Shown here piece by piece: positions 28,501 through 30,783 of a DNA stretch of 35,602 bases. Within the stretch, counting starts at the first letter, position 1; every line of letters starts with the position of its first letter. Made by a program: the position numbers and the translations under genes. The notes beneath the pieces were generated by a model. The model saw only the letters and a list, made by a program, of their open reading frames with translations. It was not told where the DNA came from and made no database searches. Location of the stretch: NCBI GenBank assembly GCA_030612945.1, contig JAUWMY010000001.1, positions 1 through 35,602 on the forward strand. Reading direction: 5' to 3'. The DNA is from Desulfobacteraceae bacterium (GTDB lineage Bacteria; Desulfobacterota; DSM-4660; Desulfatiglandales; Desulfatiglandaceae).

Positions 28501-30783
28501 ACTCTCACTCTGATACATCAACGCCATTTTGGCCCTGTAATCATCGTAATAATCCTCATCCCGCATATACTGCTCCGTCTCCTCGAAATACCGCATAAAA
28601 GCCTGCTCATCCCGCATAATGAGCATGGCCTGGCTCTCCATCTCCAACAGCTTCTCATACCGATCCGCGTCCTCCATCTTGGGCAACTGCTCCCATATAT
28701 CCACCCGCGTCTGATCCGCATCCAGCTTCTCAAAATCCTTCTGAATCTTCTCCTTCTCCGCCTCAGATAAAGGCAGCGCCAGAACTTTCTTTTCCTGTCT
28801 TCTGTCTTCTGTCTTCTGTCTTCTGATTCCAAACCCCGCATTCTCAATCTGCGATCTCACCTCCGGCACCACCGACAACTCCACAAACTCCCTGGCCGAC
28901 GACACTGTCGATTTTTCCAGCCCCCGCTTCAAACCAATCTGCTCGGCAAGGAGCTTCTTATCCTCATCATCACCCAGGTATCCTGCCGCGGGATGTACCT
29001 TTGGCGGCGGCACTGCCTCGCACACAAACTCATCGCCCTCATAGACCAGGATAGAGCTCGGGTCCTGGAGATCGTATTTAATAGTCACATCATGCTTGCG
29101 CCCATACAGCTCAGGGTCGTAATACCACCGGCCCAGGAACTTAATGCCGTGCCTGCGTATGGTGCGGACGTCCTCGCTCATCATAAGGTACCTGAGCCTG
29201 TTAATATCCACTCCATCACCCTGGCCGGACGAAAAAACCTGCCAGGGGTTTTTCCCCGCCAGGTGTCCCCTCTGTGGCCGCCGGGCATATTCGTCAAACC
29301 AGGCCGCAATGGCCCGGTGCGCCTGAAGGAGCGTCGGCACAAAGCCACCGGTGATTTTTTCATGTATCTGTCGATGGAGTTTTTCCCCGCGATTGAGACG
29401 CGGTGGCTTTTCGGCAATGGAGGTACCTATATAGGAAGGAGACATCCGCTCTAACTCGGCGAATGTCCCGAAGAATCTCTCAATGGTTTTGGACTGGCCA
29501 TGATACGGCCAGGCGTATATGGATTTGATGTCTAACTTATCGAATATACCGTTAAAACCCGTCTCATCAAAGTCCACTCCACGGAAAAACCGCGAGGCGA
29601 ACGCCCTGCCGTTATCCAGATAAGCCACCTTCGGAATTTTACCCAGCCGGATAATGGCCCGGCGCAGGGCCGAGCTGATGGCCTGTGTATTTTCCGTGGG
29701 CATGATCTCCCAGCCCAACGGGTAGCTCGATTTCATGTCATACCAGAGGATCAGGATCATTCTCTTTGGTTTGCCCGTCCAGGGGTTCAGGATCTCGAAA
29801 TTGAGCACATGACCGTCGGCCACCACAACATCGCCCACGTCTATCCGGTCGTAATCCCGCTCGATCCAGGGCAGAACCTTATCATTCAGGCCTTTATCCC
29901 CTTCTCTCCACCAAATCCACTGGTCGTAATTGACCGATATCCAATCTTTGAGAAACCGGCGATAAGTAGAATCTGAAAGACCATCCTGGATGCCCTTCTG
30001 TCCCATGATGGCCTTTGAAATCCTGATTATCTCTGATGTTTTTTTGGGTTGATAAGGTGAGCGCACAACCGAAAGTATCACCTGGGCCTGATCCTGGTTT
30101 ATCGATCTCTTTTTCCAACTACTCCCATACCTGGGAGCCAGGACCGTATAGTTAGCCCCATCGGTAGTCTGGAGCTGTCTTAATTTCCGCTGTAAAGTTT
30201 GATATGAAGTCTGACCTAATATCTCCAACAGCTTCGGCCAGGCCCCATTATTATATGCCAGGACAAAATCCCGCTTAGCATCCCCTACGGATCTCCTGAT
30301 ACTGCCCTTTTGAGCAGTATTCCGCATATACAGGCTCAACACGTCCATCCAGGCCAGAGCCTGCCGATCCTGCCACCCCCGGAGAGGCCTATCGGATGAA
30401 ATGCTGTCTATATTAACAGTATTTTCAACCAATCCCCTTTCCGGCACACCTTTTGCAACCTTATATATACTATCCACTGCCCTCTGATCGGAGTTTATTC
30501 CGGCTTGTTCCGGTCCCTGGCTCTTTCCCCTCTTCCACAAGATGTTGTGGTCCAAGGAGCTCCCGGACATACAAGATGTTGTGTTTTTCCTGCTTCGCTC
30601 CATCATAACCGCCATCCTCACATCCTCAGGTAGCCCACTCACAATAAACCGCTGATCCCCGCGATTATTTACAATATTGACTGGCCATCCTTCTTTTTTC
30701 GCCCTCCGCCTTATTGTCCTTTCATTCTGCCCTAATATCTCCGCCAGTTCCCATTTTGTAATAGTCTCATCCAGCCCCTTCAT
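28498..30783 (-). CDS. MuA-like DDE transposase (761 aa), with a heptamer array in frame ~105 codons before the stop
   Basis: N-terminal Mu-type winged HTH (ITKWELAEILGQNERTIRRRAKKEGWP). DDE candidates are in VVADGHVL, AYLDNGRAF and GQSKTIERFFG. CTGTCTT x4.5 at 28795-28829 encodes RRQKTEDRRQEKK. Confidence 0.9.
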   Translation of the reverse strand: MKGLDETITKWELAEILGQNERTIRRRAKKEGWPVNIVNNRGDQRFIVSGLPEDVRMAVMMERSRKNTTSCMSGSSLDHNILWKRGKSQGPEQAGINSDQRAVDSIYKVAKGVPERGLVENTVNIDSISSDRPLRGWQDRQALAWMDVLSLYMRNTAQKGSIRRSVGDAKRDFVLAYNNGAWPKLLEILGQTSYQTLQRKLRQLQTTDGANYTVLAPRYGSSWKKRSINQDQAQVILSVVRSPYQPKKTSEIIRISKAIMGQKGIQDGLSDSTYRRFLKDWISVNYDQWIWWREGDKGLNDKVLPWIERDYDRIDVGDVVVADGHVLNFEILNPWTGKPKRMILILWYDMKSSYPLGWEIMPTENTQAISSALRRAIIRLGKIPKVAYLDNGRAFASRFFRGVDFDETGFNGIFDKLDIKSIYAWPYHGQSKTIERFFGTFAELERMSPSYIGTSIAEKPPRLNRGEKLHRQIHEKITGGFVPTLLQAHRAIAAWFDEYARRPQRGHLAGKNPWQVFSSGQGDGVDINRLRYLMMSEDVRTIRRHGIKFLGRWYYDPELYGRKHDVTIKYDLQDPSSILVYEGDEFVCEAVPPPKVHPAAGYLGDDEDKKLLAEQIGLKRGLEKSTVSSAREFVELSVVPEVRSQIENAGFGIRRQKTEDRRQEKKVLALPLSEAEKEKIQKDFEKLDADQTRVDIWEQLPKMEDADRYEKLLEMESQAMLIMRDEQAFMRYFEETEQYMRDEDYYDDYRAKMALMYQSES
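28795..28829. repeat. heptamer array CTGTCTT x4 perfect plus 1 imperfect, in frame inside the transposase ORF
   Basis: Read directly. Confidence 0.92.

Follow-up and report, generated by a model that had tools for sequence, protein, structure and literature searches.

A perfect heptanucleotide repeat array in the interdomain linker of a MuA-like transposase from a Desulfobacterota prophage

The short tandemly repeated repetitive (STRR) heptamers of cyanobacteria are heptanucleotide repeats of the same class as the array considered here. Among the long simple sequence repeats (LSSRs; Mrazek et al. 2007, as cited in PMC4679880) of prokaryotes, heptanucleotides are the commonest class, and polymerase slippage has been put forward as their origin (PMC4679880). 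TAACTGA direct repeats, described in marine Beggiatoaceae, cyanobacteria and Bacteroidetes (MacGregor 2015, PMC4679880), lie shortly before start codons and at the ends of proteins, with the stop-bearing orientation confined to intergenic DNA and the stop-free one tolerated in proteins, and S1, Csp and CsrA-type proteins have been proposed as candidate binders (PMC4679880). On Borg extrachromosomal elements, tandem repeats create disordered regions (Schoelmerich et al. 2023, PMC9879509), and the unit lengths of genic repeats are all divisible by 3 (PMC9879509). Here we describe a perfect array of the heptamer CTGTCTT inside the gene for a MuA-like DDE transposase, found in a 35,602-nucleotide stretch of a Desulfobacteraceae bacterium (assembly GCA_030612945.1, contig JAUWMY010000001.1, positions 1 to 35,602; hereafter the window). 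The window is an integrated Mu-like prophage (33 kb) of a sediment Desulfobacterota, with the prophage genes on the minus strand. We give a probability of roughly 70% to the reading that the array is a slippage-generated heptanucleotide simple sequence repeat (SSR) of the LSSR/STRR/TAACTGA kind, tolerated in a disordered linker under low constraint.

The transposase gene and the parts of it that bear on this reading are the following.

28498 to 30783, minus strand: MuA-like DDE transposase gene, 761 aa
28840 to 28968, minus strand: aa 606-648, a long conserved helix ahead of the array, the N-terminal part of which aligns with the end of MuA(77-605)
28795 to 28825, minus strand: perfect heptanucleotide array, coding strand C(AGAAGAC)x4AG, aa 653-663 (RRQKTEDRRQ) of the transposase
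28734 to 28824, minus strand: predicted disordered interdomain linker, aa 654-670, from AlphaFold2 and alignment
28501 to 28764, minus strand: conserved C-terminal helical domain, aa ~674-761, from alignments, AlphaFold and purifying selection
28518 to 28847, minus strand: overlapping open reading frame (ORF) in the +1 frame, 109 aa, Arg-rich

Tandem Repeats Finder (TRF) describes the array as (CTGTCTT)x4.4 at 28795-28825, with a period of 7, a length of 31 nt and 100% matches; its letters are CTGTCTTCTGTCTTCTGTCTTCTGTCTTCTG, followed by ATTC. No other perfect period-7 run in the window is as long, and the array cannot be a product of chance, because the 28-mer is expected 0.00 times (100 dinucleotide-preserving shuffles) and perfect period-7 runs in 200 first-order Markov simulations reached 19 nt at most, short of the 31 nt seen here. 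A sequence-only reading of this DNA had pointed to a perfect CTGTCTT x4 array in frame within the 761-aa MuA-like ORF and had argued that a change of one unit shifts the frame downstream, the 7-nt unit not being a multiple of 3; both points are borne out. Within the ORF, 652 aa precede the array and 98 aa come after it, no stop occurs in the array in any of the three frames, and the encoded peptide repeats every 7 aa, that is, every 3 units. Two direct effects on translation were considered and rejected: a programmed-frameshift stimulator, because the RNA fold of the array region is unstructured (z=+0.86), and an internal start after the array, because no in-frame ATG, GTG or TTG with a ribosome-binding site (RBS) follows it and the first in-frame Met (aa ~700) is unconserved. 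An Rfam search of the whole window returned tRNA-Met only, with no frameshift element or riboswitch near the transposase array.

This array is part of a much larger set. TRF reports about 34 short-period arrays between 3039 and 28825, about one per kb, mostly of 7-mers with some 8- and 9-mers and belonging to several unit families. Perfect runs of at least 17 nt number 11 at period 7, against 0.065 expected, while periods 5, 6, 8, 10 and 11 have none, period 9 has four and period 12 has one. With ORF boundaries called mechanically, 30 of the 34 arrays lie no more than 30 nt from such a boundary (median distance 5 nt); random placement (2000 trials) brought 6.8 of the 34 that close on average and never more than 17. 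Several arrays extend ORF ends, and those of the TGAACCT and AGTCAAT/ATTGACT families, which carry stops in all three frames, are strictly intergenic. The transposase array is the outlier, 297 nt from the ORF boundary. All the traits of a heptanucleotide SSR of the LSSR/STRR/TAACTGA type are found here, namely at least three tandem 7-nt units, many arrays, location at boundaries and polymorphism, and the array itself is an ordinary SSR.

The transposase that carries it, a single polypeptide, is a normal member of a large MuA-like clade from the environment. Pfam Mu-transpos_C (PF09299) matches aa 532-589 (E=6e-16), with weaker rve and DDE_2 matches, and the transposase profile matches the MuA structures 4FCY (E=1.7e-11) and 1BCM (E=2.7e-8). 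The order of domains is that of a MuA-type enzyme, with the C-terminal beta-barrel of Mu transposases coming after an RNase-H-like DDE core; D323, D390 and E445 are invariant in the alignment, and the D-to-D spacing of 67 is that of MuA. More than 2000 homologues were found, the best 120 of which are mostly 700-800 aa long at 98-100% query coverage. Transposases of cultured transposable (Mu-like) phages are matched by the full protein in the core only, to aa ~590, at 25-31% identity; the tail alone has no match in cultured phages (tblastn), and window positions 26000-31300 have none among 50,697 phage records (blastn).

The region that follows the array is an integral part of this protein. All 80 aligned homologues, spread across Desulfobacterota, are single polypeptides with the tail, and most of them lack a repeat. 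A C-terminal module covering the last ~65-90 residues (with DRYEKL, FMxYFE and YQ) aligns in 28/28 and 80/80 homologues, including repeat-free Thermodesulfobacteriota members at ~43% identity, and R708, Y709, L712, E714 and E734 are kept in at least 90% of homologues. Over the 95-codon tail, the window and its nearest relative (L001) differ by 15 synonymous codon changes and 1 non-synonymous one, and third positions hold 14 of the 18 nucleotide differences; six other relatives have the same bias. This synonymous and third-position bias indicates that the tail is translated in frame 0 and is constrained by purifying selection. An AlphaFold2 model of the transposase, with the 80-sequence alignment as input, has a mean predicted local distance difference test (pLDDT) score of 81. 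In this model the confidently predicted long helix (aa 606-648) is followed by a pLDDT below 50 across aa 654-670, secondary structure resumes only at about aa 673, and the helices of the C-terminal domain run through aa 674-760, with values of 94-97 over 700-750. Modelling the tail by itself, as the sequence-only reading had suggested, gives the same helices, with tail pLDDT values of 88-98 across models. The tail has no Pfam match above threshold, a Foldseek comparison of its model with the PDB was negative (best E=7), and for the C-terminal 170 aa no similarity to solved structures was detectable in either sequence or fold. The stretch between '...NAGF' and 'KKVLALP' is hypervariable, and it is the sole unalignable segment in the C-terminal third of the protein.

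To relate the array to MuA, PDB 4FCY was used as the reference, that is, MuA(77-605), whose chain length of 529 corresponds to residues 77-605. The last aligned block sets query residue ~628 opposite chain index 514, or about MuA residue 590. Because the profile alignment puts query residue ~628 there, the array would fall at roughly MuA residue 614, at the IIIalpha/IIIbeta boundary. The alignment thus indicates that the 652 aa before the array are MuA domains I-IIIalpha only and not a complete MuA, contrary to what the sequence-only reading had supposed, and the tail would occupy the place of domain IIIbeta. In phage Mu, MuA domain IIIbeta contacts MuB and ClpX. The proposal that the tail lies in the region contacting these partners agrees with this position, while fold and sequence comparison give no match; a role for the tail as a domain contacting a MuB-type ATPase or ClpX would be a matter of positional equivalence only. 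A candidate partner is encoded nearby.

26754 to 27473, minus strand: MuB-like AAA+ ATPase (AAA_22, weak TniB match)

We presume this ATPase to be the partner of the transposase C-terminal domain. The likeness to phage Mu includes a MuB-like AAA+ gene downstream of the transposase gene and, within the protein, a DDE core, a Mu-transpos_C barrel, a long helix and a separate C-terminal module, in that order. The protein differs from MuA in that the alignment is limited to the core and in that the tail is ~60 aa longer.

These results bear directly on a second proposal of the sequence-only reading, in which the ~100-aa tail was once an independent gene downstream of a complete transposase and was joined to it through an open intergenic junction array, so that the array would be the scar of a fusion. 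That the arrays of the window lie almost only at gene junctions, several of them extending ORF ends, would suit such an event, and 5 of the 15 inspected short matches to a tail profile (P0250, P0256, P0261, P0283 and P0285) do begin past the linker. The other 10, however, are 5'-truncated transposase calls that start in upstream transposase sequence or in adaptor-derived junk, and the profile search finds the domain at protein C-termini only, with about half of the matches being transposases of 600-855 aa. The joined architecture is present in all aligned homologues down to ~43% identity, most of them repeat-free, the arrays having arisen later; no start codon or RBS stands after the array; and the pre-array part, ending at about MuA residue 614, is not a complete MuA. 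A former fusion is therefore exceedingly improbable and, as the origin of this array, is refuted by the alignments: the tail is integral in 80/80 homologues, and its conservation in homologues that lack any repeat is one part of what the sequence-only reading had named as speaking against it.

The strongest evidence on how the array behaves comes from the same linker in close relatives. The linker was compared on the coding strand, between the conserved 'AGF' and 'KKV', in 12 sequences including the window, 11 of them as DNA and P0006 as protein alone; six of the 12 were found by tblastn independently of gene calling.

Window: GGAATC(AGAAGAC)4AGG..., 48 nt
L131: GAGATT-AGAGGAC-(AGAAGAC)3, four units, one of them a variant, 48 nt
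L001: (GGAAACA)5.6, 60 nt
L004, and P0006 (peptide only): (AGRRGTC)4, 45 nt in L004
L005: (AGCGGTC), about 4 units, 63 nt
L132: GGTTCAG GGTTCAG A GGTTCAC GGTTCAC (GGTTCAN x4), 48 nt
L136: GGCGCAG GGCGTAG GGCGTAA GGCGCAA (GGCGYAR x4), 54 nt
L135: two-unit remnant, 39 nt
L134, L003 and L133: no array, 45, 51 and 51 nt

At least six heptamer unit families, in ~2 to 5.6 units, thus occupy the orthologous linker, whose length ranges from 39 to 63 nt. All 12 sequences read in frame through the linker into a tail of 95-99 aa, none of the six unit families carries a stop in any of the three frames, and the heptapeptides that they encode are hydrophilic. Of the differences between relatives that the sequence-only reading had envisaged, a separate gene or a stop does not occur, while unit sequence and copy number do vary at this one site, the array being evolutionarily labile; intergenic arrays, too, vary between relatives. 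The linker arrays are confined to the youngest clade (at least 71% amino acid identity), and the next tier of homologues (50-59% identity) has no 7-aa periodicity at the linker. Because arrays occur only in this youngest clade, the array is younger than the transposase-tail architecture. The sequence after the L001 array is ...GGAATCAGAAGAAAGTC and that at which the window's array starts is GGAATCAGAAGAC..., so that the two look like expansions from adjacent seeds rather than one mutated array; for some pairs, a single-base chain (AGAAGAC, AGAAGTC, AGAGGTC, AGCGGTC) with homogenisation is an alternative. One Joint Genome Institute (JGI) sample holds three linker states, on lineages 87-90% identical in the flanks; these are distinct phages and not slip variants. 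As a separate matter, 'RRQK' was considered as a functional basic peptide resembling the basic patch of MuA IIIalpha, and was rejected because the peptides of relatives at this place are unrelated and non-basic.

We propose that heptamer arrays would accumulate wherever constraint is low, both in this prophage lineage and in the sediment Desulfobacterota lineage that hosts it, the arrays being born and homogenised by replication strand slippage. Selection would then leave only those arrays that preserve the frame of the C-terminal domain and whose encoded peptide is hydrophilic and free of stops, and the RRQKTED peptide would serve as a flexible spacer only. A repeat with a unit not divisible by 3 would survive in a gene because it lies in a disordered interdomain linker and consists of stop-free hydrophilic units. 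The gain or loss of one unit would, on this proposal, be a loss-of-function event that removes the partner-binding C-terminal domain and not a regulated switch.

A regulated switch is what the sequence-only reading had raised as a possibility. Slipped-strand mispairing would toggle the C-terminal domain and so produce ON and OFF subpopulations of the prophage, or a dominant-negative truncated transposase. Like the tetranucleotide tracts of H. influenzae and other contingency loci, the array has a unit that is not a multiple of 3 and lies inside an ORF, so that the frame beyond it switches with each unit gained or lost, and 7-bp repeats drive phase variation elsewhere, as in the hmw promoters of H. 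influenzae. The tract is perfect and the window's longest, unit number varies between relatives, and the absence of stops from all frames means that a slip alters only the downstream part: with one unit fewer, translation would continue in the +1 frame through 91 Arg-rich codons, and with one unit more it would enter the +2 frame and stop after 9 codons. A tract of ~4 units is nonetheless short next to typical contingency tracts, and a transposase is an atypical gene class for such control. No OFF allele occurs among the 12 sequences, six of them found independently of gene calling, so that the alleles of differing unit number expected of an ON/OFF contingency locus are not seen. A distinct lineage, L131, shares the unit and has four copies of it, and a contig from sediment metagenome run X4 (~89% identical, with no listed difference across 28794-28827) probably also has four; L002, a contig identical to the window, has four as well but is not an independent datum. 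The frame-0 tail is under strong purifying selection, whereas the +1 tail is unconserved. The ORF at 28518-28847 that the sequence-only reading had pointed out does exist, but it is not a meaningful feature across relatives: L001, whose tail differs from the window's by 1 aa, has three +1 stops, the first at codon 30, the first +1 stop of three other relatives falls at codons 23, 58 and 61, and the frame is interrupted in every relative. A fully open 91-codon +1 frame is a rare outcome of synonymous-codon shuffling (0.3% of 5000 shuffles), but the one seen here is most likely a chance or compositional feature picked out by the way the observation was selected, and not a gene. Taken together, we consider a phase-variable switch unsupported and improbable.

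Several observations weigh against slippage in a tolerant linker as the full account. Slippage itself was not observed, since the Logan contigs (~7x depth) end at the array. Nine of the 12 sequences keep an array or remnant in the linker despite complete turnover of its units, an occupancy that pure neutrality does not predict and that could reflect selection for an array there. Array type and flank phylogeny are discordant, L001 having 92.5% flank identity and a different array and L131 85% and the same array, a pattern that calls for recombination or else for several independent births. Within a unit family, the arrays almost always face the same way with respect to transcription, which hints at an RNA-level or strand-specific cause beyond simple DNA slippage. 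Finally, the function given to the C-terminal domain follows from its position alone.

Some of these points would be expected if the array were a functional nucleic acid element, an mRNA- or DNA-binding or standby site for a host or phage factor, as the intergenic arrays close to an RBS would also be, kept in the only tolerant place of the gene, where it might, for example, tune how the 3' part of the early operon is translated or how stable its mRNA is. Persistence at one site despite sequence turnover and uniform orientation are consistent with such a role; so are the unstructured RNA, as for a single-strand binding platform, and the match between the unit families of the linker and those of the window's intergenic and ORF-end arrays, and a regulatory role has been proposed for TAACTGA repeats (PMC4679880). 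The units found at the site, however, differ so widely that they offer no common motif for a specific binder, three relatives have no array at all, no start codon follows the array, and the need for stop-free hydrophilic coding can by itself explain the uniform orientation. We regard such an element as unlikely. A bolder combination, in which the arrays are actively generated and mostly serve as single-stranded RNA or DNA junction platforms, and the linker hotspot (9/12) acts as a heritable, reversible ON/OFF switch of the C-terminal domain (by position, of its contact with the MuB-like ATPase or ClpX), seems very improbable to us; if true, the switch would set the transposition competence of a Mu-like prophage.

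With slippage in a low-constraint linker retained as the preferred reading, the locus can be set beside the systems described at the outset. It shares with TAACTGA, LSSR and STRR repeats the tandem 7-nt units in 2-8 copies, the many arrays per genome with period 7 dominant, the location a few nt from start or stop codons, the intergenic placement of the orientation with stops in all frames, the occasional stop-free orientation at protein edges outside conserved domains, a scattered phylogenetic distribution and a proposed origin in slippage. It differs in that many unit families, instead of one dominant heptamer, occur in a single 33-kb prophage, in that the array lies between two conserved domains, with 98 codons left to the end of the protein, and in that the carrier is a Mu-like prophage of Desulfobacterota with different units at one orthologous site. 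The likeness to Borgs lies in perfect repeats carried by a mobile element and, as far as very limited data show, much rarer in the host-lineage chromosome; in fast evolution with apparently independent births; in an A-rich, T-poor coding strand; and in genic repeats that fall in intrinsically disordered regions, with homologues carrying different repeats at the same hotspot. In contrast to Borg repeats, the unit is 7 nt long, so that a single-unit change is a frameshift and the divisibility by 3 that defines amino acid tandem repeats (aaTRs) is lacking; Borg units are also longer and mostly unique, while the units here recur across phyla and the host is bacterial.

Other arrays of the window that fall in or beside genes are the following.

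25856 to 25891, minus strand: array of a sister unit family (AGAAGTC/AGAGGTC) that ends in one AGAAGAC-type unit; last codons of a 70-aa ORF
22355 to 22408: array of 7.7 copies with 78% match, aa 143-163 of a 191-aa ORF (22259-22834, minus strand)
24901 to 24928: array within the last 10 codons of the Pfam Phage_Mu_Gam protein
28468 to 28492, minus strand: intergenic 8-mer array (CGCAGAGN)x3, 6 nt past the transposase stop and part of a stop-array-RBS-start cassette

The first of these has related arrays at 8408-8448 and 13609-13650, and its AGAAGTC/AGAGGTC family is the one found in the transposase linkers of L004 and P0006. The in-frame arrays at 22355 and 24901 reported by the sequence-only reading are both real by TRF; the former encodes a Lys/Glu/Arg-rich, roughly 7-aa-periodic stretch, and the 'zinc-ribbon' label of its 191-aa ORF was not confirmed, as there is no Pfam match and one CxxC (CPKC) was noticed near the N-terminus. 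The 28468-28492 array has a counterpart of three 9-mers in L001 and of two units in L004.

This last array belongs to a junction cassette that recurs in the early region, at 25446-25470, 26091-26106, 27794-27818 and 28468-28492, and that consists of a stop codon, TTCACC, (GCAGAGAN)2-3, an A-rich RBS and a start codon. In relatives, its unit number and period vary (8 nt in the window, 9 nt in L001), and the L003 array is interrupted by a hairpin. Arrays of the TGAACCT type lie at 8304-8357, 13120-13156 and 25357-25394 (also at 20061-20092 and 22822-22840); in the copies examined, a conserved CGACTGRAAGGAG (Shine-Dalgarno) comes directly after the array and is followed by the start codon, so that the whole looks like a duplicated 'array + RBS' translation-initiation cassette. 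An intergenic hairpin element is found at 3084-3137, 6724-6781, 9089-9142, 9975-10028 and 17486-17560, with half-sites at 20101, 24104 and 26698. The 12 nt of its inverted core, AGCGWAGCGTTC, are found 12 times where 0.17 would be expected, the loop measures ~30-55 nt and contains TTGACAAAA in several copies, and arrays (ATTGACT/AGTCAAT or the 9-mer ACTTTAGGC) flank the hairpins in both orientations. The copy at 9044-9182 (minus strand) has a fold z of -3.3, and an exact search of IMG/VR for an 18-mer of the hairpin core found nothing. This might be an element resembling a miniature inverted-repeat transposable element (MITE), an RNA processing site or an unconventional terminator.

Beyond the window, period-7 arrays are essentially absent from distant Mu-like relatives (L006-L010, ~76 kb), which have one weak array, in L008. 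In a chromosome of the host lineage (L139, GCA_963986845.1), whose kinase is 72% identical to the one in the window's host flank, an inverted pair of the GGTTCAN/TGAACCG family occurs at 9107-9143 and 9330-9354, with GGTTCAN x4.5 ~35 nt past a stop and TGAACCG x3.5 ~20 nt before the next start; array density over ~36 kb of such host-relative DNA is roughly tenfold below that of the prophage, on very limited data. Arrays of CTGTCTT/AAGACAG with at least three units are present in at least 120 genome contigs from many phyla (L011-L130), among the matches listed being Bacteroidales, Planctomycetota, Acidobacteriota, Nitrospirota, cyanobacteria, Thiotrichaceae and Omnitrophota, with several loci in some metagenome-assembled genomes (MAGs), and also in 7 IMG/VR viral contigs (L140-L146), one of them 81 nt long (L140, 5987-6067). 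In four sediment metagenomes (X1-X4), analyzed through Logan contigs and with patchy flank coverage in run X3, word depth over arrays spikes 7- to 150-fold, to 30-900x against ~3-7x in the flanks. The spikes lie exactly over 28470-28503 and 28776-28843, and contigs with unrelated flanks end in arrays; L002, the independent 9.6-kb contig of MAG GCA_028571445.1, 100% identical to window 23536-33100, likewise breaks at an array (23536). Such arrays fragment short-read assemblies and inflate local depth, and arrays beyond read length could be mis-sized.

The genes recognized in the prophage are Portal_Mu, terminase, tail tube protein, Gam, GemA, the MuB-like AAA_22 ATPase and the MuA-like transposase. 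Host DNA adjoins it from about 33,000 onward, and the prophage end falls between ~32,806 and 33,061.

33062 to 33138, minus strand: tRNA-Met (CAT), host flank
33305 to 34852: PAS/HisKA/HATPase histidine kinase, host flank, followed by a 199-aa ORF

No period-7 array occurs in the 2.5 kb of host DNA in the window. In a homology search with the flank kinase, the named matches were 64-68% identical and belong to MAGs of Desulfobacterales, Desulfatiglans and 'Deltaproteobacteria', and the metagenome runs that contain the window sequence are from cold seeps and marine sediments.

For annotation, our results mean that the transposase gene should be neither split nor called a fusion. The locus is a clean natural case of a repeat unit not divisible by 3 that persists and turns over inside an essential gene; it extends the rules drawn from TAACTGA repeats and contrasts with the multiple-of-3 rule of Borgs. 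The prophage as a whole, dense in junction arrays, stop-array-RBS-start cassettes and array-flanked hairpins, offers a compact system in which to address the role of heptamer arrays at gene starts, a standing question since such repeats were described in cyanobacteria and Beggiatoaceae.

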